Source: Stylophora pistillata
Lineage: Eukaryota
Length of the DNA stretch: 64,000 bases
Reading direction: 5' to 3'
NCBI RefSeq assembly: GCF_002571385.2
Contig: NW_019217784.1
Location: 1,782,912-1,846,911, forward strand
The translations under genes and the position numbers were made by a program. Positions 1-59,493 of the stretch are shown piece by piece (within the stretch, counting starts at the first letter, position 1; each line of letters begins with the position of its first letter). The notes under the pieces are model-generated. The model ran no database searches and was not told the origin of the DNA. It worked only from the letters and a program-made list of their open reading frames with translations.

Positions 1-748
1 TTTACCTTTTACCTTTAAGACTATTTCACTAAATTTCACGAGGTTTCCGTATAAATATAAAATGACGCCAACAGTGTTTTGAGTAATCTACGTCACAATG
101 GGAGTGACCGCTGACCGAAGATAAGTTGGCCGTGATTACGAAAATTAATGGCGGAACGGTTTTCAAATCGTAATTTCTCGCCCTAGAATTGACTTTCAAC
201 TAAAATTATTATTGAAAAGGCTTTATTAATCGCTAAAAATTCATATTATAATGAAATAACTGAATTTTTCGGGTTTTCAAATTATAGGGCGGTTTCGTAA
301 GAGTGCTCTTTTAAGCACAAATCCAATTCTATTCGGAAGCAAGAGATGTTCCCGATTGTGCTGGTCGATGATCGTTTGGTCTGGATTTCTTTAACATCTC
401 GATCGCTTAAGCATGGATTGGAAAGATAGGGCCGCTTGGCGGGTTGCTACTGTGTTCCCAGCGATCAGATCGGTTGATTATTCAATTGGGAGGTTGAAGT
501 TTCTTTATTTGCACCGACATCCTTGCTTTTAGTCCCGTGTTACAAATTGCACAGTTTTAACCTCCCAAGAAAATAACCGTATGATCTGATTTGGATCGCA
601 AGAGAGCATATTAACCGAGTCTGTTTATTAATTTGCAACAGGAAAGTTGATTTTTTATCTATTCCATCTGCTATGGGACACAGTCCCCAGGGACTCGTTG
701 ATGTCTCGCTAAATGACTGGCTTGTGAAAATGTCTTGTGGCATTTCTC

Positions 749-3700
749 TCAGTTGAATGGCTTCTCGCCAGTGTGAGTACGTATGTGGTTATTTAAGGTG
801 GTAGCCCCTGAGAAAGAGCGCGAACAGAACCCGCACTTAAACAACTTTTCATTGGTATGCGTGTCCACGTGACTTCTGAGTTCTGTCGGCGTCCCATATG
901 AAAGCGTACACTGGCCGCACTGATACGGTTTATCAGGGGTCTGGGAACACTCATGCATTTGAAGAAGAACCCGCTGAGTGAAAGTCTTTAAGCACTGCCG
1001 GCACCTCCACATGCCAAATTCGTCCGGAGACAGAGAGATTCCTGATATGTTAGTTCCTGAGTATTCATGATGTTGGGGCGTGTGGAGAAGTGGGGGTATG
1101 ACTGGACGAAGCGCAGGCATTACACACTTCGCTGCTTCTCCGTTCCGCTTGAGAGCTTGTCCTTCACTTGTGCGTGGAAAATTTTGTTGATCATCTGGAA
1201 AAGTCATAGTTTTGGCGTTGCTATCTTAAGATTTATATCAACAAGCGGCATGCCAATACGTTAACCCATAAGAGGTTATGTTCCAGCCTAACAAGCTTTA
1301 AAATACGACCCTTGAAAAAAGGACTCATTTCATGGAAATATTTGAATGCGTCGAAAGCAAATGAAAGCCTCTATGAAACGCGTCGGCCTGCAAATAACGG
1401 GTTACATGCTAAGGACTTTCATAAACAAGCCTAATTTTATTAAATCGACCCTGTGTGGAAGCTTTCTTTTTAAAGTGAATAAATTTAGTACTCACTATCG
1501 AAGAATTGTAAGGGCGGCATTTCACGCAAAGCGTTTATTTTCGGTGGCAGTCTTCTTTCGTGATTAGACAAGGAATCCTCATCTCTTTGCTGTTCCCAAT
1601 GTTTATCAGACAAATATCCTCGGGTTGAATTTTCAGTTTTCAAAACTTTTTCTCGCGAGTCCTTGTTCCTTAATTGCAATGAATAAAAATTGTCATCATT
1701 GGACGTAGGCATTTGCAAAAGATTCCTGGAAAATTGTCTGTCAACTGTCGTCGTTGCAGTTAAATCTGTCTTAACCATTATACTTTCAACCGAACTTGCA
1801 GCCATGCTGGGGCTACCTCTATTTCCAGAAGTGCCAAGCTTGTCTCGAGGGAAAACATTACCCAAACTACTCGCGGGGCGCACGAAGCGTGGAGCTGGCT
1901 CACGTGGTGAAGGGAATCTAAAATTACCCATATTAGGATTATCACGTGATTCTTGAAATCCGCAGGTTTTTGAAAATCGTGCCATTGGGTCGACAAACGA
2001 ACTGGCGGGACTGCTGACCGGAGAGCTTTGAGCATTGGAAGATGGCACTGTGAAATAAAAAAGGAGAGATAAACGTAACATCTCAGTCAGGCGGTCTTAA
2101 TTTACAAGCAATGTGAGAGTTTGTAATGGGGTTCTCATTCTGAGGAATCAAGAATTCTTAGCATATTTCAAAAGGCCATTAAGAGAAGGTTGGGTTACTC
2201 AGAACAGATAAAACACTTGAAAGTTATGCTTGGTGGCTTCGATTTACACACTAACTCTTGGTCGCTGATTTAAAAATATGACAATAAGATATAGGGGTAA
2301 CTTCTCCATTTATTATACTGCTTACATATTTCCTTTTTAATTGTTAGTTTGACTAACTCGAAACAAAACCTTGCAAATTATTCTCAACTGAAACGTTAAC
2401 TAGTTCTCTTTAAACCCGATATTGAAAATAAGAAATCCTTTTTTTAGGTAAGTGGTAAAAATCAGCATTGCCTTACCAGATTCTCTGAAGAGTTCATAGT
2501 CCTGAATACCTAGAGGAATTCCAAGGAATTGTGGATATTTTTCATCATACCAGACCAGTAATTCTGTTCCTGGCGGAACCTCTTTGAACGCTCGGTAAAA
2601 AATATTGCCACAGTATTGAAAAGCGTACAGATTCTGCTCCTTCACATGACGCGCACATTGAATAAATCGCATCCAACTGGACTTGTGTTCATCGCGTCCG
2701 TCAATATAGTGACTTAGTCGGCCATCTTTGTAGATCTATAAAGCAAGAATCTGAATATTCAACATCTCACTGCGTCAGGTTGCGCAGGTGTAGCGAGGCA
2801 AGAGGACGAGGGGCAACTTGACCGTGGGGTTAAGATACTAGACGCGCTCCAAGTTCAACTCCCTGCCCCCTCCTCCCTGTAACTTACTGGGTTACCACAC
2901 TATGAATTATTTCCAAGTCCTAAAAAAAACCTTAATCATTTCTCTCCCAACATATTGATAACAATTTTCCGGAATTAGATCTCTAAAGAAATCCTAAATC
3001 TTTTAAATCTTTTATATGGAGTCAGTATATCTATTTCCTTGAAATATGTTGATAGTCATAATGTTATGCTCAAAATAAACGCACAATTTTGATTAATTTG
3101 TTTTGGATAAACAATATATCCACAACATGAACTTTAAGACACCTGTCATACCATATCAGATATTTATAGGAAGATATATATTTAGAATATTTTACCTATT
3201 TATAATTGTTCTCTGAATTATTTTTCAAGTTATATATGGCTCAAAATATATTTACAGACATATAGATTTAGGAACTCCGAAAAAGGAGAAAAATCTTAAA
3301 ATACTTCAAGAGGATTGGGCCCCATATTAAGAATTGAGCCCCATATTAAGGATTGCACTCCATTAGGCTTTGGTAGATTGTGCTCGAAAAAAAACCATAT
3401 TATGCTTCTAGCAGTGCTCATATTTTTTAGAAATTATGCTAAAATTATGCTACTTTCTGAAAATTATGCTCTCTGTCATCCAAATTATGCTACTTACATT
3501 TTACACTGATTTTAAGGAAAATAAAGATCATCAGTGGCTTAACTCTATCAATTTTGACTTTAATGAACATTCACATAGTCCACCTTCCAGTCTTACAGTC
3601 TTTAGCATCGCAAATACGCATGTGCGTACCTCGAAAAGCCAAATGATTAACAAATGATACAAATGATACGTTCTCTAGAGATTAAAGCTCTCGGTATGGC

Positions 3701-5948
3701 ACTGGAAGTGCTTGAAGTGGTGGAAGTGGATGTACTCGAGGACGACACCATCTTTGATTTGAGGCCTGAGGGGCCGAGCCGCCCAGCCATAAGCGTGGTG
3801 GCCTGAGTCTCAGTCTTATGCACAGGGTGACCTCTGCCGCCTGCCGGACCATATTTGACCTGGGCCTTAGCACAGACCTCAATATTTTCCAAAAACAATA
3901 CAAAAATAAAATACAAACTGAATTATTCTAGAGCTATGATGGTTTTTTTTTGTTGTTGTTGTTTTCAACGCATGAAAGCTCGGATTATGCCAGCAGTGCT
4001 AAACTGAAATAAAAGCTGAAAATAATGCTCGTTTTGCTGAATTATGCTTAAAATTATGCCAGTACTATCTACCAAAGCCTAGACTCCATATAAGAACACA
4101 CTAAATGCTGTTCAAATCTTACCTCCCATAGATATGTTGTTTCATAATTTGACGGAAAATTTCGAGCTGGCAGCCGGCTTCCCTCATATGGACCTATCCA
4201 TGTGCCCAGCGGAATGTGCTCTCTCGCGCACACTCCATAACCAGCCCCAGGAATACTTGATATACAGAGGTGCACTTCATCCGGGAATGATCGAATAGCG
4301 TTTGTGAGCCGAGGCATCTCATGGTCTGCGGTATTCTTCTGTTTTTTTGAAGACAAACCTCCTGTAATAAATAATAATGATAATTCAAACAAGGATAATG
4401 ATAATAATGATAATAATAATGATGATTTATCGACAGTATTTCTACATGGTAGCTCTACATCCGTCATACTAGCTAAAAACTAAAGACTCACAAGAAACAT
4501 TCACTATTTACATAAAGTACTCAAAAACTGTTAAAACTACATAATCTAAAATACTTTAGATACCACGAGTACCCATAACTAGGAAACCTTATCGAGACAA
4601 CTTATGAGGTCAAACGCATGTTTGTTCTGTTCTTAAGAACTGTACAACAATTATTTTTGAAAGTGTTGAAGTCTGGACATCGCCTCCCACTCGCGGGTAG
4701 GGCAGTGATTAAAGTCGATAGAATACTTGAGAGGCTGACATGACATGCGTCATAATCACGTGCCTGTCAGATGTCATGAAAAATGTAGCAGTCCGAGATC
4801 GCGTAGTGCGATGGAAGAGAGCTAGCCACGACCTTGACTACCAGAGCCTCTACACCGTGAATCGAGATCACAGCATAAACAATAAGGACATAAACAAAGT
4901 AATGGTGCCACAAATAAAGCTAGGAATCCTGTCAAACCAAATGCAGATCCCTGACATGCTTATAAAGAGCTCTTACTTACAGAATAAACAGACCACACAT
5001 GACCAAACCGCAGCATGAGAGATCATTTCTGATCTGTTTTTTACCTTCATTTCAAAAAAGGCCCCTTTCTAAAACCTTTCACCGGAGCCTAAACTCTTCT
5101 GACTCAAATGCACTCTATGGCTATTGAAAAATGTGTATTTGAAAAGAGGATCTCGAAAATGAACAGTTAATTTGTGGCCCAGATACCAATGAATAAAACT
5201 CTTTTCACAACTGTCAAAGACAAAGACGTATTATTGTCACTTGAAACCTCGAGATAAACCGGAAAACTCGCACGTTTTCCTTTTTACGCAATTTTTATTT
5301 GATGAAATTTTTGCACAGGATTTGCCGAGTTTCAAATGTTTCCACTGCATCCGAAATGTATTACCTCTGCATGAAGGAAAGTTTAAGTGAACAATACGCA
5401 CAAGGCAATATATTGGCTTGAAATTTCTGCCCATGCAAATTTTTTGTGGTAATCCTTCAGGGCAGGCGCAGAAACCTCGTAAACAAAACATTGAAAGCGG
5501 AACTTTTTAGAACAATCAAATTAATGCAATGTCGACAAAAGAGAATAACAACGTTATCAATGCTATCCTGAATATTAACATATTCGTGAACACTCTAGAC
5601 ACTTTGTGGTACGGTTTTCTTTGGAAGTAGAAACGGGCTTGTATTGCTTCATGGTAGTTTTAAGAGCTGAGTTAAATTCCCTCCTTTATCAAAAATATCA
5701 GTGATATTGTTTTTAGCGATTTTGTCAGGCGCACTCGATAAAAGATTGCTTTTACCGTCATGTTAATAAGCTATTTTCGTACCTTGTTCATCTCCGGCCT
5801 TCCGTTTCAGTTTCTGCAAATCTATAACCCTGACTTGTTGAGAACCATATAAGACTAAATTTAGAGTTCTCTCGTCGATCAGACAATAACCATTTCCTCC
5901 AGTGTAGTCCTTTGTGTTTTCTTGTTTTGGGCCGGTTTTGTCTTCCAT
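749..5948 (-). CDS. PRDM6: PRDM6-like PR/SET-domain zinc-finger protein, paralogue g1 (~563 aa to the first TGA; ~589 aa if read through to TAG at 671-673)
   Basis: Exons 5948-5783, 4361-4123, 2735-2477, 2047-1496 and 1224-749, all GT-AG with phases 1,0,1,1. Contains the pre-SET motif [15 protein letters not shown], the PR domain ([57 protein letters not shown]) and fingers [39 protein letters not shown], which match vertebrate PRDM6 as I recall it. Possible 5' UTR exon ends at 7377 (GTGAGT donor). AATAAA on the minus strand at 624-629. Confidence 0.9.
3364..4081. mobile_element. Non-autonomous hAT-like DNA transposon in g1 intron 2
   Basis: Terminal inverted repeats TAGGCTTTGGTAGAT / ATCTACCAAAGCCTA. 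Near-perfect 8-bp target-site duplication CACTCCAT (3356-3363) / GACTCCAT (4082-4089). Multiple AATTATGC subterminal repeats. Confidence 0.8.
4366..4735 (-). mobile_element. Probable 5'-truncated LINE 3' end with (ATT/ATC)n tail in g1 intron 1
   Basis: The minus strand has a broken frame ..SLP../[12 protein letters not shown] resembling a LINE ORF2 C-terminus, then a short UTR and a trinucleotide tail (4366-4425) abutting the exon-2 acceptor. Confidence 0.35.
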
Positions 5949-13267: not shown

Positions 13268-13750
13268 GGATGTTACTAAAATTGGTAACGGGGAACGGGG
13301 AACGGGGAACGAGGAACGGGGAACGGGGAACGGGGAACGGGGAACGGGGAACGGGGAACGGCGAACGGGGAACGGCGAACGGGGAACGGGGAACGGGGAA
13401 CGGGGAACGGGGAACGGGGAACGGGGAACGGGGAACGGGGAACGGGGAACGGGGAACGGGGAACGGGGAACGGGGNNNNNNNNNNNNNNNNNNNNNNNNN
13501 NNNNNNNNNNNNNNNNNNNNNNNNNNNNNNNNNNNNNNNNNNNNNNNNNNNNNNNNNNNNNNTCCCCGTTCCCCGTTCCCCGTTCCCCGTTCCCCGTTCC
13601 CCGTTCCCCGTTCCCCGTTCCCCGTTCCCCGTTCCCCGTTCCCCGTTCCCCGTTCCCCGTTCCCCGTTCCCCGTTCCCCGTTCCCCGTTCCCCGTTCCTC
13701 GTTCCCCGTTCCCCGTTCCCCGTTCCCCGTTCCCAGTTTTAGTAACATCC
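13268..13750. mobile_element. Foldback/Mutator-like palindromic element built of inverted (GGGGAAC)n arrays
   Basis: Termini GGATGTTACTAAAA / TTTTAGTAACATCC. (GGGGAAC)n left arm and (GTTCCCC)n right arm either side of an N-gap. Perfect 9-bp TSD ATTTGAGAT at 13259-13267 and 13751-13759. Confidence 0.8.
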
Positions 13751-16178: not shown

Positions 16179-19100
16179 ATGGACGGTTCGCCATCATCAA
16201 CAGGATCTTCACAGTACCGTGTGCATTTTACTGAACAAGATCTGCAATATGTTCTGTACGGGAGAAATCCTGTGGAGGTGGTACAAATTTTAAAAACGAC
16301 GACTGAAGAAGACATGGACAGCTCAGGTAAATTAAACTTCGAGTTCCACGCATACATGTTATTGACCTAGGGCGAGGTCTTAACGGTAGGGAGCTACTGC
16401 AACGAGGTCTGTACTTACAGAAAACACCAAGGACCAATTTCTCGCACTAGGTGCTAATTTTTTTGTCTTACGGCTAACTGTTAACCCCGTTGGGACCCTC
16501 TGAAAAATATTCCATTGGAAGTAAAATACTTATGGACGGATTTCTTGCATGTAGAAACCTACGCAATCAAATTTTCACGACCGTAATTAAATTTTATCAA
16601 AAAAAAAACATTCTATGGCTCAACGTATAAAACTAGGAGAGTTACATAAGTTAAAGTCAATCTTCTGTTAAACCATTGTTAAAGATCATATAAATAAAAT
16701 TAAAAGGGACAGTTAACATTCTACAAAACCCAGGGCTCAAAGTTGAATTTTGGCTTTGGGAGCACTCGTGCTACCAGATGTAAAATTTTAGGCGCACTAC
16801 TAAAATTCTAGGCGCACAGCGAAAAATGTTAGGAGCACAGCTTAAAATACTGGTGGAACCAAAAAAAAAAAAAACAGAAAGCTTCAGACGTTGTATAAGT
16901 AATCATTTATCGGCATGATGTCTTTTATTTTAAACGGATCTGTGTTTGTTCCCACCTTCAGGCTACTACTCTACATTAGAGATAACAATAATACTGTTAT
17001 CATACTGTTAGGTTTTTTTTCAATTAACTTCTCCATCTCAAGAAGTATTGCACTTCATGGTACCTGTACATTCAAGGCAACAGAAAAATTCCGTATTCAT
17101 TTCCTTTGAAATGAGCGTGAATAACTAAGAAAAAATACACTGCCAGTTTACTGTTCACAACTTTCATTTGATTTCCAATGAATACACCTTTAGTTTAAAG
17201 CTGAAACAGACTTGGACTTGGAACCATGTCCTTAATACAACATTAACTCGATCATTCGAAATCCTGTGAGTGCCACGAGTCAGCAACTGAGATTAGTTCA
17301 TCTGGCCACTTTCTCTAAGCAAAGTTGGGACGCCTTGGTCTCTGACCGCTACGGTTCAAATAACAATCCCTGCAATAAACATGGCTCTTACTCTTCGAGC
17401 GCTTAGTAAGTGTCTCATGTTTAAAATTGCTGCATCCATTGACTAAGGATGGGAAGGCTTTACAGTATCGGCAGCGAATCAACTCTTTTTCTGAATCGCA
17501 TTCAAGCCATTCGAATTCCTTCAGCCATGCTCTCTGAAACTTATATACTTTTCTTTTTTTGTTGTCTCTGGTTCGTCCTCTATATCTTGGAGTAAAGCAC
17601 TATCAATGGAGCTGGACACTGAAGAAGTTTTCGAGTTCGAAGCTGAAGAAGAAGGCGCCGGCCGGCTGTTCAATAACAAAACTATAGTTATGCAAATGAG
17701 CGTTTCGTAAGAGAATAAATTACATTGATTGCCATTGACTTAACTGAGATGTACAATACAATACAATACAATAAAGTAATTTATTATTCGTCGTTTTATT
17801 TAAATTGCTCCCGCCGTGAAGAAAAAAAGTCTTTTAAACCAGGTTGTTTAGACATTCTTGCCTCTGGCTTTACCTTTCACATCGACCGGTGAACTTGATT
17901 GCCGAGAAGCACGTGCTTTAAAGGTAGCCTTCACTCGCATGAGTCAGCGGAGTATTTGCAAAACCGAATAGGACTGGGATAGAATGGGAACATGGAGCTC
18001 CGAGTTCGGAGAAGCCACAGCAGATAAAGACCAATAAAACGCACACTGATGCAAGGAAAATGATAACTTTATTGTTTGCAGCCCGATTATGTCATACCTA
18101 CGATTGAACTTATTATTTCAATCTTCCGTTTCATGTCCAACCAGTCGGAGTCATTTTAGAATGATCAGGTAGGAAAACAGAGTTGAGTGGCGATAAGCTC
18201 AGTCGCACTAATCTCTGCGATTTATAGGGGCGCAAGTGCGATCACACATGAATTTTTAGGCGCACAATTAAAAATCTAGTCGCATGTGCGACCAGCTGGT
18301 CGCTAACTTTGAGCCCTGAAACTCCCATAAATATAATGAATCAAAACCTCTCTTAGAATCGGCAGATTCGGATTTAAATTTGCTTCTGCCTGGGACTGAA
18401 AGATCGGTAATTAGGTTTTGTATCTAGAAAATTGCTTTAAATTTTATCGGAATATGTAATAACGATCTATACAACAAACAGAGTCTATTTGCACTCAAAG
18501 ACAAAATTTATAAACGCGCTCAGCCAACCAGCATCCTCTATACTGAAACACTAACATTAAATAAACTTTCTGTTATTAAGTAAAATGAAACTTTTAACAT
18601 AACTGAAATTATGTGACACTGATCAAATCAAATGTATGTGTTAACATATAAGAACATTTCAGTTGCGCTTAAGGCATGGTATGGTGTAGACTTTTGTGTA
18701 AGTGTCAGTATATTTTGTTTTTGACAAGGCAATTGGGTCCACTGATAGAGTGAAGTGGAGAAATAAAAATTGATATTAAAAAAAATTAATTGAAAAAACA
18801 TTTCTTACATAAAAACCGAGTAATATGTGCTAACTAATTTTTCTATATAAAAGAAACCGATCAATGTGTACAATCAATATAGTAAAACTCTATCTTATTT
18901 TGAAAATTATAGGGAGAGATCCTTTATTTGCTTGTCTCCGACAAAAGCTTCTAGGAAAAAAAAATTAATTAGCTCGTAATAATCAATTTATTTCATTTGA
19001 CTCTCACTGTTATCCAAAAGAACAACAACCCGAGTTTCTCAAAACAGCACCAGACAAAAGATGGATTAACGTCGCCATGGAGACAGGTCAAAGTAAGTCC

Positions 19101-21922
19101 GCAAGAAATACAAAGCTATGTTACGCTGTGTCCTCGTTCCCGGATGAAGTGAAACTTTGCCTGTCTGGAATCCCAGGGGAGGGCCACGGAGTTTGCGCAA
19201 AGCATCATATTCCTGCGGGAACATGGATTGGTCCATACGAAGGAAAGTGTCTTTCATTGGAAACTGACAACGTTAACGTTACCCCGGATATAGACACGTC
19301 ATACATGTGGGAGGTATGTTCGCTTGTAGACTATAGGTTTATCACTTTAAGATTAATGAATTGACTTTTAAATTTTTCAATATTACAATATTGAAATCAG
19401 GCTTATGACTAAATTTCACATACTTACACTGTGTTTCTTGAATCACTGCAAGTTCACTTTATTGACAAATCATGCACCAGGCTTTTTAGGTTTTATTACT
19501 GAATTCGAACCAACACTCAACTTGTTTCCTCCTGTAAAGCTCTAGACAAATGAATCATAACTCAATAGCTGAGAAAATAACATCGATTATGGTATTTTTT
19601 TTCTGTTTCTTTGTTTGTTTTTGTCATTTCTTTCGGAAATCCAGTAGCACTAAGACCAGCACCAACATTAATATGTTATTCTTTCTTGCTGCAGGTCTAC
19701 GACAACGGTAAGCTGGCATTTTTTTTGGACGGAAGTGATACGGATACCTCTAGCTGGATGCGCTTTATTCGCTGTGCTCGTCACAAGGAGGAGCAAAACA
19801 TGTTTGCATTCCAGCACAACAAGAGTATCTTTTATCGCGCTTTCCGTGAAATACCGAGTGGCACGGAGTTATTGGTCTGGTATGATGACAAATATTACCT
19901 CCAGCACATGGGAATACCTGTTAGTAACTGGGATAAGGACATTTCACAGCACTTTCCAGGTGAGAGATTTCTCAGTAACTGAAACTGGATCATTGTATGC
20001 CTAAAAAAAGATGGCTCTGATGCCATAATTAGCAAATGTAGTCCAAAATAAGGAGGTCACATACGTTAGTTTTTTTTTTTTTCAACAACGAATTCCAAAA
20101 ACGTTGCCTTTCAATTCCTGAGTTCAGAAAATATAAATGCGCGAATTAAGACATTGTTTATTGACTATTTTGAATTAGATGTTGTGTCAGCAATTCATTA
20201 CATAATAATTTGGATATATCAACAAAGTTGAAATGGCAAATTGGCCACCGTAACGATTACAAAAGCTGACGTTTCGAGCGTTAGCCCTTCGTCGGAGCAA
20301 ACAGAGGAATTGTGAGTCGTGTGTGCTTTTAAGGGCAGAAAATGGAGCTACGTTATTGGTGGGAACATGGCAACGAGAAAAACAGGAATAAATTACTGCC
20401 TTCTTTCAAACCGGCAGTCTAAATCCCACAGTGATCAACGAACGCTTTTCATTCCACTAATTCATTCGTGTTTTTCTCGATGCCATGTTCCCTCCAATAA
20501 CGTAGCTCCATTTTCTGCCCTTAAACACGAAGGCGCGCTATAAAAGGAGCCTTAGGTCCCACTGGACCATTTGTCAATCAACCGTCGTGTGATGTAGAAC
20601 TCTTAGAGTCAAGTCAGCTTGAGCTACAGCTCCTCCAAAGCAGTGAACAGCGGGCGCATTCCTTAAAATTGTTTTATTTCTTCATCACAATACAAGAATG
20701 AGATTTGTATTTCCTTTCTCCAATGGAAACTGTCTTTATTTGTGGCGGTAAATTTGAGATTGAAGTAGGTGGTTCGCACGTTACCTCATGCCACCATGCT
20801 GGTGGAAGTAAACAGTAGATATCTCATGCATTAGCTCCTTTTGTTCCTCTACCAGCATTTGAATTTGACCCGCACACGTTAACGGTGAGTGACAAATGAA
20901 CCTAGGTCTTCCCAGGGAAGGCTTCTTTATACAGCGCGCCTTCGTGTTTAAAAGCACACACAACCCACAATTCCTCTATTCGCTCCGACGATGGGCTAAC
21001 GCTCGAAACGTCAGCTTTTGTAATCGTTACGGTCGCCAATTTATCATTTCAACTTTGTTGATATATCCAAATTATTTCGTTACCCCCACCGACGCAGCCC
21101 CAAACATTTTCTTTAGAAACTATCAGCCTTAATTCATTACATAATTCGATTTGGTCAAACTCTTGTCCTGTAACAGGACGTACACAGACGACGAGCAAAT
21201 ATATGACAAAATGTAACTCCATTTCTTTTCTAGTTTTTAAAGGGAAAGCATCGAGCACGCAACATGCAGGCAATGTCACTATTTCAAGCGCCCATGAATC
21301 ACAGAGTGAACAAGAAACTTCTCCAGTTAATATGAGTCATGAAACTAACCATCAAGAGAGGAGCAGCAAGTCTTGTGTCAAAAACAGCCTCCCTCCTTGT
21401 AAGCGGCAGGTTGACAAATCATTCCCTCAAGAAACAGAACGACCCCTCAAGCTGCCCCGAATGCAACAAGAATCGAGCAATGGTACCTCACCAGCAGAAA
21501 ACAACTCGGTTACCACCACAGGAATTCAGCTGACCACAGGATACCGTAAGATATATGATAAAGTGTTGGAGAACATCAGGGAAAGCGATGATTTCAAATG
21601 TGGTCAGTGCAAAATGTCCTTCACTCAACGCTCTCTTCTGAATAATCATCTCTGTTCGCGCATGCCTTGTAAGCCCTATCGATGTGGCCATTGTCATGAA
21701 TCTTTTGCGCAACCTAAAGAACTGCGCATGCACGCAGTTGTTCACGTGAGTGAGAAGCCCTTCAAATGCGGTTACTGCCTGCGATCGTTCAGCGGAGCGA
21801 CTACTGTGAATAATCACATGCGCACGCATACTGGAGAGAAGCCATTTTCATGTGAACGGTGTGGAAAGTCTTTTTCACAAGCTTCCCAGCTAAGTCGACA
21901 TCGTAGGATTTGCATAAATTAA
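16179..21922 (+). CDS. PRDM6: PRDM6-like PR/SET-domain zinc-finger protein, paralogue g2 (~464 aa)
   Basis: Exons 16179-16326, 19021-19313, 19695-19959 and 21234-21922 (phases 1,0,1). Motif [12 protein letters not shown], intact PR domain ([29 protein letters not shown]) and four PRDM6-type fingers. No zinc knuckle. The ATG follows an AG acceptor, so an upstream exon may exist. AATAAA at 22541-22546. Confidence 0.9.
16731..18318. mobile_element. Non-autonomous hAT-like element (~1.6 kb) in g2 intron 1
   Basis: 14-bp TIRs CAGGGCTCAAAGTT / AACTTTGAGCCCTG with TAGGCGCAC subterminal repeats at both ends. TSD not clearly preserved and no transposase ORF. Confidence 0.7.
20207..21130. mobile_element. 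Penelope-like retroelement relic with inverted pseudo-LTR arms in g2 intron 3
   Basis: 15-bp flanking duplication AATTCATTACATAAT (20192-20206, 21131-21145) and inverted arms at about 20207-20330 and 20945-21075. Residual frame [19 protein letters not shown] (20401-20460) resembles a PLE GIY-YIG C-terminus. Minimal hammerhead motifs in both arms. Confidence 0.75.
20982..21015 (+). ncRNA. Minimal type-I hammerhead ribozyme-like motif (PLE-associated; core variant CCGACGA)
   Basis: GCT-CCGACGA-T-GGGC-TAAC-GCTC-GAAAC-GTC-AGC: stem I GCT/AGC, stem II GGGC/GCTC, palindromic ACGT stem III and a GUC site. An inverted copy lies at 20265-20298. Confidence 0.6.
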
Positions 21923-32917: not shown

Positions 32918-35424
32918 ATGCAGGCATCCACTGTTGAAAAGGCAGCGGCATTCCCGAGAACACAGCTTAGCACTGTCAAGGAAAAACGGCCAAAAGAAGC
33001 AATCATAAAACCGCGGGGTTTTGCCTTCACGGCCGAAGACCTGTATAATTATCTGCACCAGAAGACTGGAAATGTTGAGACAATTAACATTGAAGAGTCT
33101 AAGAGCAAGAAACTGGAAGAAAATGGTTCAGGAATGGAGAAACCTTCTTCATGTAGGTTGATGTCTTTTTTTAGACTTGCTTGTTTATTCGAATTATTGT
33201 TTCTTGATTGAATCAATCAATTCAGTGTTTGTTTGCTTTCTGTGAGGCCATCGTTCGGTTCCAGACGTAAACGATTCTGCTGACCTTTATTCCAAAATGG
33301 CTGGTCCGTTTTCATTGAAGCACTTTCAAATCGAAATAAATCGACAACAGTATCATATAAAAACGTTTCTTGATTTCGTGGATTTGCACGGCCTAAAGCC
33401 TAAGTCTTACAAAACGTAAAGTGCAAATTTGGGAGCGAATGGTTCCTGGTAAGAATTTGGATAACAAAAGCACCTTCCCTCCTTTTTTTTGTGAGTGGAT
33501 ATATACATATATCATCGCCAAAGTTAAGAAGAAAACAAATTTCATTCCAATCCTTTTCCTCAGTTTGCAGAATCTGTAACAAGATCTATACAATCCGCTG
33601 CCCTATTCATCCACCCTCTAGCCAATCGGAGCCGAGCCTGCCAGGAGACTGGAACAGCTACGCCTTGAAATCTTTCCCGGATGTAGTTCAGCTGTGTAAG
33701 TCCAGCATACCTGGCAAGAAGCATGGAGTGTCCGCGAAACAACACATTCCTGTGGGCACGTGGATCGGACCCTATGAGGGAAAACGGATTAATCCCGAAG
33801 ATGTCAAACCCAGTATGGACTCTTCTTACCTGTGGGAGGTACGAGACAAAACAAAAACACCTATATCAGTTTCAAGTTAGGTATTGAGAAAGATTTTTAT
33901 ATTGAAAAACCTAAAACTAAGCTTAAAAGCAAGATTTCTAGGATGCGCGGTCTTAAGATGAATAGGACACAGTTTGCTTTCTACTCGTCAATTCATTTCA
34001 TCAATTAATGTCGCAGGTTTACATTGCATTTACCTGAACGAACACAGTAAACAGAATGTATAAAGAACTTTCTATTGTGCATACATTTCGATGGATGATT
34101 TTTAACCTGACTCTTATTCATTTTAGATCTACAAAGATGGCCAAATTTTGTATTACCTCGATGCAACGGACGAGAACTCGTCCAGCTGGATGCGATTCAT
34201 TAAATGTGCTCGCCACAGAAGCGAGCAAAACCTGTTTGCTTTCCAGTACTGTGGCAACATTTATTACCGAGCGTTCAGGGATATTCCTGTAGGAACAGAG
34301 CTGCTTGTGTGGTACGAAGATATCTACCCACAATATTTTGGTATTCCGATAAGCATTCACGACTTGAATTCAACGGGTAAGACCAGTTTTTCTTGATATC
34401 TCTCTCACATATGACACGTAGAATGCCACACAACTGCCTATATCGCCTTTGTTTCGATTCATCCCTCTTGTCATTGTTATAGGAAAAATAAAGATAGAAT
34501 TGACAAGAAAGCGAATGGCTAAAACAATATTGAAGACGAGTTTGACATGACACTCTTGCGATTTAATTGATAACAAGAAATGTCAGACTTGTCAGGCAGT
34601 TTTCGAAGTTCGACTATGATACTAATTTTAGTTTACTTTGCTCTTTAGGATCCAGGCCTTACCCAGTAATGCCAACGACTTACACAGATGGACAACAGGT
34701 CTCCCCCATTCCTCCTCCGTCAATAACAGCTGGAAAACAAGCCTCTGCTCAATTACAAACATCTTCTAATAGGAGATCACCACGTGACTCACCTCCGACA
34801 AGACCTACGCAGACTCCAAGCGCGACAGAAGGAGAGGTCCATGTAAAAAAACAGGCTCCAAAGGAAAACATCAAGAGGAAATGTGAAGATAGCAATGGCA
34901 GCAACAAGAAGGCGAAGATGCAGAACACGCCCAAGACTGACGGACCAAAGGAGATGCTTAGGAAATTGGAGGAAGCGCGTCTCAAGGACCTACAGGACAA
35001 GACGGAGTTGCCATGTGAATGGCCTCGTGTTGCTGATGGGGAATTCATCTTGGAAAATGGCGAACCAAAGATCTGGCATTGTGGTCAATGCGACAAGTCT
35101 TTCGCTCAGCGCAGCTTGCTTCAAATGCAGATCTGTGCAAGAAATCCAAACAGACCTTACCAATGCGGCCACTGTTCGCAGGAGTTTGCGCATCCTAACG
35201 AGTTGCGTACGCATGCTGTCATTCATTCAGGGAAAAAACCATTCAAGTGCGGGTTTTGCTCGCGGACTTTCGCCGGAGCAACAACTCTTAACAACCACGT
35301 CCGAACCCACACAGGAGAAAGGCCTTTTACCTGCAACAAGTGCTACAAAACATTTTCACAAGCATCGCAACTTAGCAAGCACAAAAGATCTCTCTACGAG
35401 TGTTTGCCCAGAGACAATTACTGA
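32918..35424 (+). CDS. PRDM6: PRDM6-like PR/SET-domain zinc-finger protein, paralogue g3 (~511 aa)
   Basis: Exons 32918(or 32924)-33152, 33564-33838, 34127-34376 and 34649-35424 (phases 1,0,1). Motif [12 protein letters not shown], zinc knuckle CRIC..CPIH, intact PR domain and four fingers, with ZF1 His replaced by Gln (LLQMQIC). The true start may be an upstream ATG|GT exon. AATAAA at 36063-36068. Confidence 0.9.
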
Positions 35425-40764: not shown

Positions 40765-43700
40765 ATGACAAGGAAATCGAGCAAACAAGACGTGTCCTGC
40801 AAAATGTCACATCTGTTTAGTGAAGAGGCTAAAAAGAGGCTTGAGCTAAATTTGGTAAGCATTAAACAGAGAGAGAGAGTAATTCCGAGAATGCTCCGTG
40901 TAGAGCAAACGAGATATATTACGATTTCAGCGGGGAACAAAAAAGGCGGTTTTATTTCTTGTCCTCTCTATGCCTCTTATTTAAAAACAGAAAGTACATT
41001 TTGTTTTCGGATTGTGCCAACATATTTGTTAATTTACTGTTGCCGGGAAGTACTTATTCCAACCAGACTTTTTCTATGATCGACTGCTAAGGCAAATATC
41101 ACTCATTGCATTTGCAATTTAAAGAACCAGTTGTCTTGTTCTAACACGTAGTTCAGTCGACCAGACCTAATTAATTTACATATGCTATCTCCCGTAGATT
41201 TAATGTTCAGGTTAATTCGAGATTCTTTGTAATTTTAAGACATAAAATTTCTTGTCAGTTGAATCAGATTGCTTTGCCATCTAACCTGGAACCCAATGCA
41301 TCTTCACATCAGAGCCCCAGATATTTCACCCCTTCAGAAGTGTTTACCGTCCTTTATGGCCAAACAACACGATGGCAGGTGAATAAAGATGAAATTGGTT
41401 CGCAGTCAGCAGGGCGTTTTGTAGAACAAGAAGCACTCAATCCAGGTAATTTTTGTGAACATAATTTAGAACGTTTCGTACGCCGAAAATATTTTGACTG
41501 GAAACCAAAACCAATCACGCGCGACTTCGCGTCAAGGCGCGTATTGATGGGAATAAACACGCGCATTTATACTCAGTTTTCTGATTTGCTTTCATTGGTC
41601 TAAGATTGTCCCTGATTTATTTACGGTTTTGAAGAGGACATCTCGACTTTTTTCTCGGCTTTAACAATTATCGATGAGTCCAGTAATACTATAGTTCCTT
41701 GTCTGCACCTGACAATTAAGAAACAAATCATCCCTTTTCTTTCCTCGAAAAAAAATTGCACTTGAAAGCAAAACCTTCTTAGGTGCTTAAATTATTTTGT
41801 GTGTATAATCACGTAAGATGAAACGAGTGGAGGAAATGTATTAATGTCGCAACATTGGTCACCAGTTTTCTCACCTGATCAGTTATCTGGTGAGGCCTAG
41901 TGACTATTATAAATTTGTTATTTGGCGAGAGCTTACTTTCAAGAAGATCATACAATTTAGTTTGGCTGCTGCAGAAACGTCATTCATAAGGCTTGGGATT
42001 TAATTTATTCTTTTTAAACTACAGTGGTTGTTTGAAAAATACTTCAATTCAATGACAATTACCTAAAGCCAAACAAACAAATTAGAATCTTGACAACCAT
42101 TTTAGTAGTTACAGGCATTTATTTGGAATGATTGATAGAGTATTTCATAGTTTTCCCAACTGTGACTGTGCAGTGGTTGCGCTTTATTCACCTCTGAGTG
42201 CCCTACGTTATGATGTGCAGTCATGCAATTAAATAAAATCTATTTATAAAGGAGTTTTGTCGCACGAAAGTTAGGTCTATACCAAACATGACGTAAATCC
42301 AAACTTCTTTGCCACAATTGCGAAATATTTTCTAGTATGTACCGCAGATTTCCGTTCGAATAGGCGGACGAAAGCTAAATTGGCAACTATTTCAATGAGA
42401 AATATTTGCGATAATAGTTTTGTGGTAATTAAAGTTTATGATGCTGTCCTTTAACATTCATTCTTTTCAGTTAAGTATTCAAGACTGGGGGGATACCATT
42501 CAAACCAATTATGTTAATAACGTAGACGGTTGCATTGATGTTTCAACAAAAGGAGGAAAAATATTCAACGTATTTTTACTCCTGAACTTTGTTGAGTTAT
42601 ACGTTAAGATTGATTCCTCAATACACGTTAGCTGAAAAAATTACCAGATTTTTCGCATCAAACATTCTGTCCACGGCATGGATAAGCAAACTCGTTGATG
42701 TAAATTATGATAAAAAAACAACTTGACAAAAAGCTATTTATCATCAAGTTCAATTTTAAATTTAGTCACAGAAAACTTGATTTAACGACCTCGAGAGAAA
42801 TATGGAAAGTTTAAGCACACAACTCCACAGACTTTTCCACTCACTTTGACTGGCAGCAGCGTCACGCGAGTGGACAGATGGAATGTTTTACCTTCTTGAA
42901 GCATTGCTCAGGGCAAAAAAGGGGGGCAGACAAAGACCTTTATTGAAAGTTTAATTGCCAGAGATAATTCTAGTTTTCTATAAGTATATGATGAAGGTAG
43001 AGCATGTCAGAGCCTGTACTTTCCTCAGACACTAGCCATCTAATCATGGCAAAGATATCCATAGATTTTGAAATAATCCATGATGAAGATTTTACCATCA
43101 TTACTTACAAAATCGATTGTCTTGGTCATAAGTGGGGCAAAACCTTTCATTCTCAAGATCTCAATGTCAATTCTCCCAACAGTCTGCCATACATTTCTTG
43201 ATGTTTTTGCTCTGAGAATTTGGGAATGAATCAAACCATAGCCCTCAGTTGATATTTTTTTACTTTATCCTCATCACATTGCTGTATAGTGATAACGTAA
43301 GCAGAAATTACTCACCGGTCAGTCCTGAAAAGATTCATATAAATATTCCCAAAGAAGGTTGGAGCAGTCTAACTCTGATCACTAATTTTTCCTTCAGCAT
43401 GTGAACTTTGTCAATCGATGCCCCGTGGCTCATGCGCCCTGCATAGGCAATCCACTCAGCCTTTGATTGACAAACGTGTAAGCTACGCCGTCAAGTCCTT
43501 ACCAACGGAATGTAAGCTTGGAGTCTCCTACTCGGCTGGGGAGGGGTACGGTGTGTACACCAATCAGCCCATTCCTACGGGAACATGGATTGGTCCATTT
43601 GAAGGAAGACGAATTCGTCCACGTGACGTCACATCAGAAATGGATACGTCACACATGTGGGAGGTAAATTGAAATAGGGAGCCTTGGGAGCCTGGGTCTC

Positions 43701-46700
43701 ATCTCGCGCTGTTGAAAAATAGCGGCCAGTTGTTGTCGCAACAAAAAAAAGCAGCTTAGATAAGTAAGGAGCAGTATTGCGTTCGTTTGACTCCAATTTA
43801 TAAGAAATTCATCGCAGAAGACGTGCAAAATTTAGGAAGCTGACCACGACAGCAATGATGTAGGATTTAGCAAAAAGTACATAAAAATCGTGTTTTTCTA
43901 ATAAAAACAAGATCAGGACTATGATTGGGAAAGATCTAGTTCTTCCAGAGTTAACTTTCACAGGTGAAAAGAGAATAGAAACCAACTGAAATTTGTTCTC
44001 ATGCCCGACAATAGATGATGAGTCAGGAGGATTAGGATCTGAAATAGGTCCAGTTTGAACTCTGAAAGTTTTTTGAGTGTCAAAACACTTTGCTGTTAAT
44101 CGGTGAAGTAGTTTAAGATGAGAGCACAGGTCTTTCATCATCGATCCCCGTTACGTCACTCGTTTGTTAAGCTTCCTACGCTGCCGCACTGGTTCGTAAA
44201 GGACGCACGAAAACAATACAATAGCGCGCATGTGCATTTAAATAAAACGCAATCAATCCCACAGATATACGAAGGTTCCACATTGTCTCATTACATTGAC
44301 GGGAGTGACGAGAGCTGCTCCAGTTGGATGCGATTTATCCGCTGCGCAAGACATAAGGGCGAGCAGAACTTGTATGCATTTCAGTTTAACGGAAACATTT
44401 ACTACAGAGCGTTCAAAGATATTCCAACAGGCACAGAGCTGCTTGTATGGTACGATGACAAATACCCGATGTACATGGGCATTCCATTCGTTAGCGCTTT
44501 TCCAGGTGAAGCTAGTTCAGGTGAGATATTGGGTCAAATTGATGTTCAAGTTAAGGCAGTGTGTATTTTAAAAGCCTCTCATCTATATCTAGCACAAGTT
44601 ATTAAAACTGGGTTTCTCACCAGGTGGGTACATTAAAAAATATTTGAAAATACAAATTAAGTTACACTGGTGGTTAAAAGCGTCTCTGAAATTAGTAACA
44701 ATAAAAATGTTCCCTTTCACTTCCCCTAAAGAAGGTCCATGATTGCGACCGAAACGTCGGGAACATTTTTATTGTTACTAATTTCAGAAACGCTTTTAAC
44801 CACCAGTGTAACTTAATTTGTATTTTCAACTATTTTTGAATAGCACAAGTTAGTTGAAAGATGGAGGTAGTCAGAAAGGTAACTACATCGTCATTGAGAG
44901 AGATAGACAAATGACATGCAGCGACAGATAGTTAGTGGTTCTCGATTGATAAACAGGCAAGTAATTAGTGAATGAGTTGGCTAATTATTTCTCAGACTTC
45001 CTCAGTCAGTATCGATGTGTAGGTAAAACTGCCAGCCAACAGTTCAGCTACTTAGTTACTTCGTTGATCATCCTATCCAGCCATCCAGCCATTGCTTAGT
45101 AAGTCGAATTTGTGTCAGTCAGCCTTTTGTGAGTTATTAAGTCAGTCATTGTGAGTCACAAAGTCAGTTGATTGACAATTTGTCAGTAATCCTATCAGTC
45201 AGTCATTGTGAGTCACAAAGTCAGTTGATTGACAATTTGTCAGTAATCCTATCAGTCATCCAATCTGTCATTGGGCCGCTCTATACGTCAATTAGCCAGC
45301 CAGATTGCTAGCCAGATTGTCAGCCAGATTGTCAGCCAGATTGTCAGCCAGATTGCCAGCCAGATTGTCAGCCAGATTGTCAGCCAGATTGCCAGCCAGA
45401 TTGTCAGCCAGATTGTCAGCCAGATTGTCAGCCAGATTGCCAGCCAGATTGCCAGCCAGATTGTCAGCCAGATTGTCAGCCAGATTGCCAGCCAGATTGT
45501 CAGCCAGATTGCCAGCCAGATTGTCAGCCAGATTGTCGGCCAGATTGCCAGCCAGATTGTCCGCCAGATTGTCAGCCAGATTGTCAGCCAGATTGTCCGC
45601 CAGATTGCCAGCCAGATTGCCGGCCAGATTGCCAGCCAGATTGTCAGCCAGATTGCCAGCCAGATTGTCAGCCAGATCGTCAGCCAGATTGTCAGCCAGA
45701 TTTTCGGCCAGATTGCCAGCCAGATTGCCAGCCAGATTGCCAGCCAGATCGTCAGCCAGATCGTCAGCCAGATTGTCAGCCAGATTGTCGGCCAGATTGC
45801 CAGCCAGATTGTCAGCCAGATTGTAAGGCATTACAAGCTAAGCAATCCTCACAATTTTCAATAACTTGTCATTCTCACAGCCACGCATGACAAAAAACAA
45901 GACAAAATGGTACCGCAACAGTCCAACCGACCAATAAACTCAATATCATCCTCAGTAAAACCTCAAGACACTACCCGATATACAAGAACAGCCTCTAGTT
46001 CCCAGTTCACGCCAAGTACAAGTCCTGTTTGGAGTTCTCAAGGTATGTAATAGTAATCAAAGTTTAATGTCTTTTTATTGCCCGAGCCAGAGGCTCATGT
46101 ATGAAACGCTAGACAACAACCCACTATCACACAGTAATCTCGTGCGTGGGAAATTAACGTCTCCTACCCCTAACCCTGCATAGTTGATCCCCTATGAAAA
46201 GGAAAAGCAACTGATTAGTTTTATTTGTAACTTGTTTTCAGATACGAAAACTCCGCCGACTGATGCAAAAAGACTACCTCCGCTTATTCCGACATACACC
46301 TTGAACCAAAGACGACCATCGTTAGAGAGCGTACCACGAGACCAGAGGTCTCCTTTGAAAAGTGACGTGAAAAGTGACGTCGCTAACCTAGGCAACAATA
46401 GAATACCCAGTCCAACTAGTCAAACAAGCGAGTTAACATCATGGCGATGTCAACAGTGCCATAAGACTTTCACTCAGCGAGTTGCATTACAAATGCACGT
46501 TTGTCCAACCCAACCAACCAAACCTTACCAATGCGGACAGTGCAGTAAGACATTCACTAACTCCTCAGAACTGCGCGCGCACGTGGTATCTCATACAACA
46601 GAGCGGCCGTTCAAGTGCGGCTTTTGCTCGCGCACGTTCGTTGGGGCAACGACGCTGAATAATCACGTGCGGACTCACATGGGTCAGAAACCTTTTAGCT

Positions 46701-46828
46701 GCGAGAAGTGCGGCAAGACATTTTCACAGGCTATGCACCTCGCGAGACACGCGCGGGAATCGTGTGACCTCGTGAAGGAAAAAAGTAGAACTGATACTGG
46801 CACAGCACATACGCTGTCGACCTTCTAA
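40765..46828 (+). CDS. PRDM6: PRDM6-like PR/SET-domain zinc-finger protein, paralogue g4 (~515 aa)
   Basis: Exons 40765-40854, 41259-41445, 43398-43663, 44265-44520, 45881-46042 and 46242-46828 (phases 0,1,0,1,1). Motif FTPSEVFTVLYGQ, knuckle CELC..CALH, PR domain with GPFEG and four fingers. The first exon and start codon are less certain. Confidence 0.88.
44602..44840 (+). mobile_element. Small retro-type (Penelope-like) insertion: ~70-bp-arm hairpin with a hammerhead-like motif in the loop, in g4 intron 4
   Basis: 12-bp flanking duplication TAGCACAAGTTA (44590-44601, 44841-44852). Inverted arms 44644-44714 and 44759-44829. The loop holds CCC-CTAAAGA-A-GGTC-CATGATTGC-GACC-GAAAC-GTC-GGG (44723-44761). 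Confidence 0.7.
45141..45258. repeat. 57-bp tandem duplication
   Basis: GTCAGTCATTGTGAGTCACAAAGTCAGTTGATTGACAATTTGTCAGTAATCCTATCA x2. Confidence 0.9.
45294..45823. repeat. 12-bp minisatellite GCCAGATTG(T/C)CA, about 44 units, intronic in g4
   Basis: Read directly from the sequence. It lies between g4 exons 44265-44520 and 45881-46042. Confidence 0.95.
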
Positions 46829-49305: not shown

Positions 49306-52300
49306 ATGGAGCTAACATACGAGGTAAGAAATTGCATCGAATTTAGACATAAATGAGTGTAAAGCGAAAGGTAAACAGCATCATCAGGAATCATTGTTTG
49401 AAGAAATGGGTCCAGTATGGTTTTATGTTTCATGAACTGTATTTTAAACCTGCATGTTAATATCCCAACAGTCAAAAACTGATAATTCAGCTCGGCAATA
49501 TTGCGTTAATGTTTAACAGCCATTTCCGCTAAATCTGTTAAATCTAGTAGTCTTTTTTCCCCCTCTTTTTACCTTGAATCTTAAAATATTCGATTAAACA
49601 TCCCGTCAGTCGCTGCATTTGTTTATTCTATAAATATTCCCATTTTGTTTTTGAAAGCTAAATAGCTTTTGAGCAGCGATTATTACTTGAAGCGAATATA
49701 TTCACGCACTGATGAATTTCTTCAAAGTCAGTCAGATGAATATTTATCATCATTAAAAATTTGTTGTCGTTATAATCAAAATCAACACTATCGATATCCT
49801 AGTGTATGCTTTAAGGATATTCTCCTTTTTTATTCTTTCCCCTTTAGAAACAAAATCTTGAGATTTCGACAAAGAATTTTCAACCTGTTTTAAAGAAACC
49901 ACGGTTTCAGAAAAACTACGCTAATTTCAGTCCCTCCAGAAGGAATTCTACAGGGAACAGCTTCAGTTATGAAGATTTACTGAGCTTTTTGTTCGACAAG
50001 AACAATATTCGGCCCCTAAACATCGAACAATCAGCCGTAACACACCAAAAAGATTGCTTCTGTAAGTATGCTGGAGTAAATGATTGATCTCCTTGGGGTT
50101 AATAAGTTAAAGTCAGCTTTAACTAGTGTTCTATGACAGCCTCTCTTTTTCATATGATTCAGGATTAGTAATTGAAAGAAATTCAAAGCACAAAGCGCAA
50201 GGTACTAGTGAAGCGCAATGGATCATGGGAAGAGGGATAAAATACCTAATTCACGAATCCCCTTCAACTTTTGCCCATTATTTTAGTTTTCATTTGTGTG
50301 TTGTACTCTGTGTCCGTGTTTTTTTGTTTTGTTTTTGTTTTGTTAGGGTTAGAATGGACACACACAAGGAATTATGGAATTTTTGTGATTTTGTCATTTT
50401 CAGGGTGTAACGCCAGTTTAGTAGAATCAAAGTTTCGGTGTCCTCAACACAGATTAGAAAGCCTTGGCACGAAGCAAACAAATCAGTTACCACTCACGAT
50501 AAGATCCCTTCCGCCGGAAGTTGGCTTGTGTCAGTCCAGCATTCCTGGCGCAGGATATGGGGTGTGTGCTAAGAGAACAATTCCTATTGGTGCATGGATT
50601 GGGCCCTATGAAGGAAAGTTTGTGAAGCCCGAGGAAATATCTTCTGCTGTAGACACATCTTACATGTGGGAGGTAGGGTTTCTCTTGGAAAATACACCGT
50701 GCAAAATATTTTAAATATAGTACGTCCTCAATCGCTTGGTAGACACACAGCAAATTTAAACTAATTGGGTGTTGGCCAAATGGCTTTACGACGATTACAT
50801 ATTTGATTTACCCCCCCCCCCCTTCCCAATAGATCTACAAAGACGGCATAATGACAGGATGCATTGATGGCAGCGATGAAAATTATTCCAGCTGGATGCG
50901 TTTTATCCGCTGCGCACGACACACAGGGGAACAAAACATGTTTGCCTTTCAATACCTGGGCAAGGTGTTTTATCGCGCTTTCAAGACCATCCAACCAGGA
51001 CAGGAAATGCTTGTGTGGTACGACGACAAATATCCACAGTACTTTGGTATCCCCTCAGCTATGTTTGACATGGGTACTGTCATACCAAGTGGTGAGTGAC
51101 CCTTTCTCCTCTAACATTTGAGCAGTCACAATAAAGATAAACAAATAAACAACAAAAACCACAAGAGACATAGTACCCACAGTCCACTAAATCCTGGATT
51201 GGAAGTGGATATATGTGGCAGTTACACGAGGCGGGTCACCGTTCCTGGTATTCTGCGTAACGAGTGAAAGGTGGGGAGTGTAAGTTTTAGGAGGTGACCG
51301 AGACATAGCCAAGATGACGAGCAATTCCAGAGGATTCCTCTGTAGTTCTGACCTAAACCAGGAGTCCATTACCCGGAGCTTCCATCTTCCATACTGACCC
51401 TCTGCGCCAACCCTGTTCCGTATCTTTCTATTTTTAGAAGCACCTCCCACGGCGGTTTTCGCGGGTGTTTTTATAATAGCCAATCATAAGAGAGCTGTCG
51501 TCTCTATTGTGTTACGTCTCTATTGTGTCACTTGTCAGGCCGCACGAAATTATTTCAATAATGGCGGAAAGCGCGGAAAGATTAAAGAGCCACCGCAAAT
51601 ATCTCAGTTCTAAAAATAAAAAGATACGGGACAGGGTTGACTCAAGGGTACAACTGAGATGGAAGCTCCGGGTAATGGGCTCTTGCCTAAAATCGTTAAA
51701 GTGACAAATGAGAGAAAGTAATACAAATGTTTAAGTTCATCTGAACTGGAGGATAAGTGGCTGAGACGTTAAAGCACTTGTGGTAATAACTAAAAGTCTG
51801 TCAAGTGTCATCAGCATAGTTAGAAATGGGGGGAAATATTTGAAAAGTTTCAAAGTGAATCTCACGATAAATAACGGTTTACCTCTGGTAAAGATGACAT
51901 TAGTGGTTGTGCTTGACTTGTTAGTTAGTTAGTTGTGATTGAGTGGTTGCTAGTGTTTATGATTGCTTTTATATTTAAGACAGAGATGATATGAAAAGTT
52001 TACAGCAGCTTAAGCTAGACTTTACATTGTTTTGTTAGATACCAGCTCCAAACCTAATGAGGTGATTGTTGTCACTACTCACGTAACAAACCAGCCGTTA
52101 GACACCAGTCCACAAAGTTCCTTCTTTCCCAGTCCTCCTCCCTCGCCTGTTTCTCATTCCAGTAGCCAATTTGGATCAAATCCAGTTAGTTTGAAAGGAA
52201 ATTGCTCTCCTATACGTAAGACCGGCGATGAAAGGCTTTCTTCTCCCAAGCACGAAGGCGCGATGAAACCTGTGCCAGACATGAAGTTCGTCTTTGAGAA

Positions 52301-52745
52301 TGGCTACAGTCCGCTGAAACAGAATGAGGGTAATGCAGTAACAGAAGCTGAGCGAGGACGTCCTGAATCATATGAATCACTCTCGCTGCCTGGGGATGAA
52401 TCAAATGTTTGTAAAAAGACAGCAGCAGTAAATACCGACTCCAAAGCCACGGAGCTTAGCGTAGGAACAGCTACAACTTTTAAAGAAATGTCTGTGTCTC
52501 AGATGGCAATTGGTACCCAGATCCCACCAATTCCTTATCAGTGTGGTCACTGCCCAGCCTCTTTTAACAATGTCTGTAAATTGCGCGCACATGCTGTCAT
52601 CCATGTCAGCAAGAAACCCTTCAAGTGTGGGTACTGCTCACGCTCTTTCACGGGGGCAACCACTGTGAACAACCACATTCGATCACATGTTGGAGGCCGA
52701 TTGTTCGCCTCTAGAAAACGTCCTCTCCAGACTGAGGAAGTGTGA
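49306..52745 (+). CDS. PRDM6: PRDM6-like protein, paralogue g5 (~488 aa), with only two intact zinc fingers
   Basis: Exons 49306-49323 (MELTYE, inferred), 49848-50061, 50404-50672, 50833-51091 and 52039-52745 (phases 0,1,0,1). Motif FSYEDLLSFLFD (this exon is missed by the ORF track), knuckle CFWC..CPQH split across the intron, and an intact PR domain. ZF1 is degenerate and ZF4 is absent. Confidence 0.87.
51170..51690. mobile_element. Degenerate long-inverted-repeat (MITE/foldback) element in the last intron of g5
   Basis: Inverted arms at about 51355-51480 and 51560-51690, e.g. CCATTACCCGGAGCTTCCATC / GATGGAAGCTCCGGGTAATGG. Right outer end not found. Confidence 0.55.
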
Positions 52746-58400: not shown

Positions 58401-59493
58401 GTTCTTGCAAAATGTAAGTGCAAAACCATTTAACGGATGACTTAGCACGTAATACTTGCATTGATAAAACATAAATTTATATTTTCTATTTTAAAAACAT
58501 CATGTTTCCTGTGAATGAAAAATACCCTGTAAAGTCATCGAAATACAGTAACTCTCCTTGCATACAGTTCTCAGACATCTTCTTGTGTGTGTTCTTGATA
58601 CAGATCAAAGACAGCATCCCGAAATGGTCGTTGTAATTCCACATGATAATCCCAATCCAGGTTCCTGCCATTCAAAGGAGTCTTCATCCAGTCCCTGGAA
58701 GGATAATCTACAATTCACAACCAGAGTCAGATCCATATTACCGTCACGTGAACAATCACGTGTCAAACGGTGCTTATCTAATAACACTTCTAATAGAGGC
58801 GAAAGTCTGCGTGCATATGCTGAGGAATATAAACGTGTCCGCCATGTTTCCTGGACAGCCGATGGTACGCCATTACAAACCAGTGCGCAAATGACTGAAA
58901 ATTCTCTTTCTTCGGAAGAAGCCCGAAGTAAGCCTGTAAGTCCAGTTCAACATTTTGGATTAAAGAGCGTACATGTGCAAAAGATTCCAAACAATAACCG
59001 TCGTGACCTCAAGTCTTCTGGGGGAAAATACAGTAACGGCTCAAAAATGGCGCCGTCAAGCATAGACGAGAAGCATGCGCAGCTACGGTCTACTGATGAA
59101 GATGAAATCAGTTCGGATGGTTCCGATGCGAACTTTTTCAACTGCGGTCAGTGTGGGAAATCATTTGCTCAACGCTCGGTGCTTCAGATTCACGTATGCC
59201 CCAACATGCCACGCAAGCCCTATCACTGTGGACAGTGCTCTCAGACATTTGATCATCCAAACGAGCTGCGCACGCATGCTGTCATTCATGTGGGCGAGAA
59301 GCCATTCAAGTGTGGTTATTGTTCACGATCATTCGCAGGTGCAACAACTCTTCATAACCACGTGCGCACACACACCGGTGAAAAACCTTTTTTATGCGAG
59401 AGATGTGGAAAGAACTTTACTCAGGCATCCCAGCTTCACAAGCACGAGAATATACCCGGGGATTGTGTTCGATATGATGCCCTGCCTGACTGA
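55404..59493 (+). CDS. PRDM6: PRDM6-like PR/SET-domain zinc-finger protein, paralogue g6 (~555 aa), all modules intact
   Basis: Exons 55404-55617, 57090-57394, 57988-58246 and 58604-59493 (phases 1,0,1). Motif CTTEDLYQCLYQ, knuckle CKGC..CQFH, PR domain with SWMRYIRCAR and four fingers ending HENIPGDC. Confidence 0.9.
56786..56810. repeat. (GAT)n microsatellite, possibly the tail of a minus-strand LINE fragment
   Basis: Read directly from the sequence. Followed by ACTTTATT (AATAAA on the minus strand). Confidence 0.7.

Follow-up and report, generated by a model that had tools for sequence, protein, structure and literature searches.

Does the in-frame TGA in the last coding exon of a PRDM6-like gene of Stylophora pistillata reflect the biology of this coral, or is it a wrong letter of the reference assembly? 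The window analysed here is a stretch of 64,000 nucleotides. On its minus strand, HTGEKPFN is followed by the TGA (751-749), then by EKCHKTFSQASHLARHQRVPGDCVP, which amounts to 25 sense codons, and by a TAG (673-671). The features concerned are the following:

749..751, minus strand: TGA in place of residue 554, the first Cys ligand of zinc finger 4; the letter that deviates is the T (plus strand) at window position 749
680..751, minus strand: zinc finger 4, C-x2-C-x12-H-x6-C, with the PGDC tail at its end; spacing kept in 188 of the 197 fetched motif-bearing homologues, vertebrate PRDM6 included

The window letters thus agree with the original prediction, which had placed the TGA at the first Cys of finger 4, followed by 25 codons and a TAG. 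It had also described a perfect finger behind the TGA. The 25 codons and the PGDC tail are indeed intact, but the finger is not a classical C2H2 one, since its spacing is C-x2-C-x12-H-x6-C. Its remark that the paralogues have Cys at this position holds as well: the matching codon is TGT or TGC in five of the six other paralogues of the window, and the sixth (52014-52745) has lost the finger.

The coding sequence, on the minus strand, is split into five exons that total 1740 bases (579 residues and the stop):

5783..5948, minus strand: exon 1, with the start codon at 5948; placed by alignment to the protein records P0190 and P0200 and by splice dinucleotides
4123..4361, minus strand: exon 2, N-terminal part of the PR/SET domain; placed by a loose RNA end at 4125, alignment to P0190 and P0200 and splice dinucleotides, its exact 5' edge being deduced from the reading frame
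2477..2735, minus strand: exon 3, C-terminal part of the PR/SET domain; placed by the Pfam PRDM2_PR match and RNA contigs
1496..2047, minus strand: exon 4, linker region; placed by the joints 1194/1496 and 2047/2477 in two RNA runs and by splice sites
671..1194, minus strand: exon 5, the last coding exon, with the four zinc fingers and the true stop TAG (673-671); placed by the contigs of runs X11 and X17, which skip 1195-1495, by P0200, which aligns to the end, and by Pfam zf-C2H2

In two runs, the RNA contigs are spliced across the last two introns. A PR-type SET domain is present (PRDM2_PR, 106 bits on exon 3 for a cut-off of 27), and the top matches of this domain among solved structures are the PR domains of PRDM12, 9, 14 and 1. 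The C-terminal array of C2H2-type fingers is recognized by zf-C2H2 in three stretches (60.6 bits). From what is known of the family, the intact protein would bind DNA via its fingers and regulate transcription via the PR domain, and finger 4 would bind zinc via Cys, Cys, His and Cys.

Two observations concern the 3' part of the gene. In both RNA runs, a contig of lower depth runs across intron 4 (1195-1495), where several protein records end (...FFDSEY); it could be a retained-intron form that has no fingers, unspliced RNA, or DNA carry-over. At the true stop (673-671), the related species represented by protein cluster P0122 has a Trp and continues for four residues (WQMG), and the window reads QME behind the TAG, so that the gene end has shifted recently in one of the lineages.

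Over the finger region, identity to many vertebrate records named PRDM6 is about 58-60%, and the array is closest to PRDM6, with a last finger ending in H-x6-C (alignment to the mouse record P0120). Judged from its letters, the gene is an ordinary five-exon coral PRDM6-like factor. According to PMC4760075, Prdm6 dates back to the last common ancestor of animals and is present in non-bilaterians. At least nine PRDM6-like genes, this one included, form a tandem cluster on one contig; seven of them lie in the window, and two (L002 and L007) lie past its two ends:

671-5948, 19065-21922, 33458-35424, 43403-46828, 50484-52745, 57209-59493 and 61861-63293: PRDM6-like genes of the cluster

The literature search returned no paper on a coral expansion of PRDM6-like genes. 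In the paralogue at 52014-52745, the frame ends ...HVGGRLFASRKRPLQTEEV and has no finger 4; this copy is either a diverged three-finger form or a decaying one. In the paralogue at 21851-21922, the last finger ends in H-x3-C (HRRIC), followed by a stop, instead of H-x6-C. Elsewhere in the window (13287-13738), a 7-base tandem repeat (AACGGGG) is followed by a run of N and then by a near-inverted repeat (TCCCCGT). The zinc-finger arrays of loci L014 (G000:C76) and L031 (G000:C8) contain several in-frame stops, and are probably decayed genes.

The codon can be read in other data from the same species. The stretch is contained in 20 public runs, of which four, from four studies, were compared with the window letter by letter at the level of contigs. 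At window position 749 (plus strand), the letter is A in X1, X11 and X17, which gives TGT, and G in X5, which gives TGC; the T of the assembly occurs in none of the four. X1 is a near-identical DNA run, in which all 2501 bases compared lie in a single contig with five differences. It may be the source of the window DNA, and it is not counted as independent for this reason. X5, X11 and X17 differ from one another in sample and study. The contigs of X11 and X17 are spliced RNA and read UGU, so that transcript-derived sequence also has Cys at this position. Among the 20 runs, the highest share of window words in any one run is 0.96, which fits with no run having the exact letters of the window; the 16 runs outside the base comparison do not count as evidence.

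The protein records give the same picture. Every one of the 12 records in the closest protein cluster was read. The site is spanned by ten, and nine of these have the Cys together with a complete tail. The remaining one, P0190 (a putative PRDM6 of Stylophora pistillata, 553 aa), is the nearest named record to this gene; it is identical to the window translation and ends at PFN. The stop therefore sits in the deposited assembly, and the idea that it was added by data handling in this analysis is ruled out by the same truncation in this public record. More broadly, Cys is found in 200 of 201 protein motif matches (for the larger clusters, among the matches listed), the exception being the assembly's own record. 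Fourteen related loci were found in metagenomes: 12 carry the finger, with TGT in six, TGC in six and TGA in none, and the remaining two are distant loci in which the motif was not seen. The TGA is present in the letters of the assembly and absent from all other data examined.

These results bear on the options left by the original prediction, which had listed selenocysteine and stop readthrough among them. An in-frame TGA at a conserved Cys with intact downstream codons is the usual signature of a selenoprotein. Recoding of the UGA as selenocysteine in a UxxC zinc ligand, or its readthrough as Cys, would account for the position of the TGA and for the intact codons behind it. Against this, the spliced RNA contigs read UGU, TGA is shared neither by the other runs nor by any of the 12 related loci, and the one protein match out of 201 that stops there is the assembly's own record. 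The earlier failure to find a convincing SECIS element is repeated over the 751 bases that can be searched on the 3' side (the DNA past the window edge reads N): Rfam gives no match at E values up to 10, and a motif-and-fold scan, run with no positive control, retains no SECIS-like candidate from four core motifs. Recoding is rejected because no transcript contig has the UGA and neither other individuals nor related species share the TGA, and is considered extremely unlikely.

Another explanation is that the window copy is a decaying duplicate, and that the reads with Cys come from an intact twin elsewhere. The gene does belong to a tandem cluster of paralogues. However, the assembly contains no near-identical copy, the next exon matches being 67-75% identical, and in X1 and X5 the exons, the introns and the 3' flank each lie within a single contig, with 5-6 differences per 2501 bases. 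The twin gene is rejected on the absence of a second close exon copy in the assembly; the chance that it exists is minute.

The preference of the original prediction for a recent mutation or an error is supported by the TGT or TGC codons of all four runs and all 12 related loci. It had held that TGC or TGT in reads or orthologues would point to an error or a private allele, and this is what the runs, the loci and 200 of the 201 proteins have. The question then becomes whether the stop is an error or a real nonsense allele of the sequenced colony, probably heterozygous. As the stop is in the last exon, nonsense-mediated decay would likely spare the transcript, and the product would be a three-finger protein of 553 residues. 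The presence of the stop in the deposited assembly and in P0190 is compatible with such an allele, and the paralogue that has no finger 4 indicates that such losses are possible in the family. Moreover, contigs drop rare or alternative alleles, so that a heterozygous T in the source colony would be invisible in the contig comparison. The near-identical run X1 argues in the opposite direction, as it has TGT only, even if its contig could hide a second allele. The truncation is also found in none of the nine other records of the same cluster that span the site.

Another argument against a private allele comes from the codon itself. This Cys codon is polymorphic (TGT/TGC), and the letter of the assembly is a third one. 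The TGA would make a third allele at a site that already has two, and an error is preferred for this reason. The same pattern is seen at a second position of the gene, and a third may be added to it:

2682..2684, minus strand: second third-letter site, AAG (Lys153) in the assembly, AAT or AAC (Asn) in the contigs of the runs
5838..5840, minus strand: third assembly-only codon, CAA (Gln37); His in all three other same-cluster records that span it (protein level only)

At window position 2682 (plus strand), X1 and X11 have A, and X5 and X17 have G. Residue 153 is Asn in 13 and Asp in one of the 14 other close records printed. The Gln37 codon looks like a case of the same kind. Two of the five letters found only in the window (749 and 2682) coincide with one of the 12 sites that vary between runs, which, according to the assumed length, has a probability of about 2e-4 to 1e-3.

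Unrelated genes of the same assembly were considered too. Out of 30 single-exon receptor frames that were fetched, 20 were looked up and 18 were found; one exact sequence was also present in Logan contigs. Two receptors are of interest:

Frame 940-2421 of contig C165 (L106, G000:C165), minus strand: receptor with third-letter residues 137, 469 and 492 at two-allele sites
Frame 1357-2475 of contig C276 (L113, G000:C276): receptor with TGG (Trp) at residue 106, the position of a conserved Cys at the top of helix 3

The C165 receptor is the best sampled (10 full-length records). Its three assembly-only residues all fall on the 10 variable positions out of 494 (P 6e-6), where the other records show V/M, T/N and Y/D. 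In this gene, three sites have a third letter in the assembly and five have real alleles, which switch between two haplotypes. If the genotype of the source is as assumed, the split of three versus five is close to the half-and-half that is expected of a random choice among four bases. Where the C276 receptor has Trp, 29 of 30 paralogues have Cys, and so does a record 99% identical to it. This position is presumably that of the receptor disulfide Cys, and the Trp is likely to be the same kind of error, namely the Trp version of the TGA event.

How the wrong letters would have arisen can be pictured as follows. The sequenced colony would be heterozygous T/C at the codon, the site would have become ambiguous at some step of the assembly, and it would then have been filled with an arbitrary base. 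Such filling of a T/C site in a Cys codon would give TGA with a chance of 1 in 4. Arbitrary filling at heterozygous sites is the likely way in which the wrong base was chosen. A strand-flipped ambiguity code, with which the letter of the assembly would always be complementary to an allele, was considered and did not hold up. With most pairs of alleles, a third letter is bound to complement one of them, and such a pattern carries no information. At four sites of the C165 receptor that are not self-complementary, the assembly has real alleles, switching between the two haplotypes, which fits an arbitrary base better than a strand flip if the source was heterozygous there. Transitions account for none of the five differences between X1 and the window, compared to six of the 10 other variants (Fisher P 0.044), a weak result that does not separate arbitrary filling from a strand flip.

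The genome-wide tests are less favourable to an error. An internal stop is found in one of 148 receptor matches (best-scoring candidates), at a position where neither a Tyr nor a Cys can be identified. None of 406 other zinc fingers has a Cys changed to Trp or to TGA. These tests thus reveal no excess of false stops; such stops are not common elsewhere in the genome, which is counted against the error. Considering the assembly-only residues of all the receptor clusters, transversions make up 10 of 22 changes, versus 24 of 60 ordinary polymorphisms (misaligned fragment ends included), which is not an enrichment.

Taken together, the evidence favours an error over a private allele. The third-letter pattern recurs at Asn153 and at all three sites of an unrelated gene, which would rarely be expected from real mutation. 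It very probably follows that the TGA is a wrong assembly base at a Cys codon that varies between TGT and TGC, and that the gene encodes a normal four-finger PRDM6-like factor of 579 residues. The stop is likely not a real biological feature, and the locus a case of ordinary biology rather than recoding. It is improbable that the stop is a genuine private nonsense allele. That the colony carries the TGA as a third allele, and that a three-finger PRDM6-like form escapes decay and competes with the four-finger form, has an equally slim chance of being correct; if true, an ancient developmental regulator would have a naturally occurring allele with a lost finger in a reef coral.

The stop is of no importance for biology, the gene being an ordinary PRDM6-like factor, and is important for quality control. 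The reference of this coral seems to carry letters that are not alleles at some heterozygous sites. The wrong letters have entered public protein records, including P0190, from which finger 4 is missing, and a receptor record that has Trp at a conserved disulfide Cys. Lone odd stops or residues in this genome need a check against reads before they are called recoding, pseudogenes or adaptive changes. A literature search, whose coverage left out most subscription journals, returned no description of the stop in this gene or of this kind of error.

The case resembles base errors of reference assemblies at heterozygous sites, in that the stop is confined to the reference and to its annotation, and the other data of the species do not have it. 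It differs from them because the wrong letter matches neither of the real alleles. Selenoproteins with Sec/Cys pairing in a UxxC motif also have an in-frame TGA aligned to a conserved Cys of a CxxC. Unlike theirs, the TGA described here is not in the transcript contigs, is not conserved, and no SECIS element was found for it in the 751 readable bases. As for the protein, it shares with the PRDM6 subfamily a PR domain followed by four C-terminal zinc fingers, and the H-x6-C end of finger 4 (HQRMPNEC in vertebrates). The coral gene differs from vertebrate PRDM6 in that its contig carries a tandem series of at least nine paralogues, itself included, and the two are likened by sequence rather than by one-to-one orthology.
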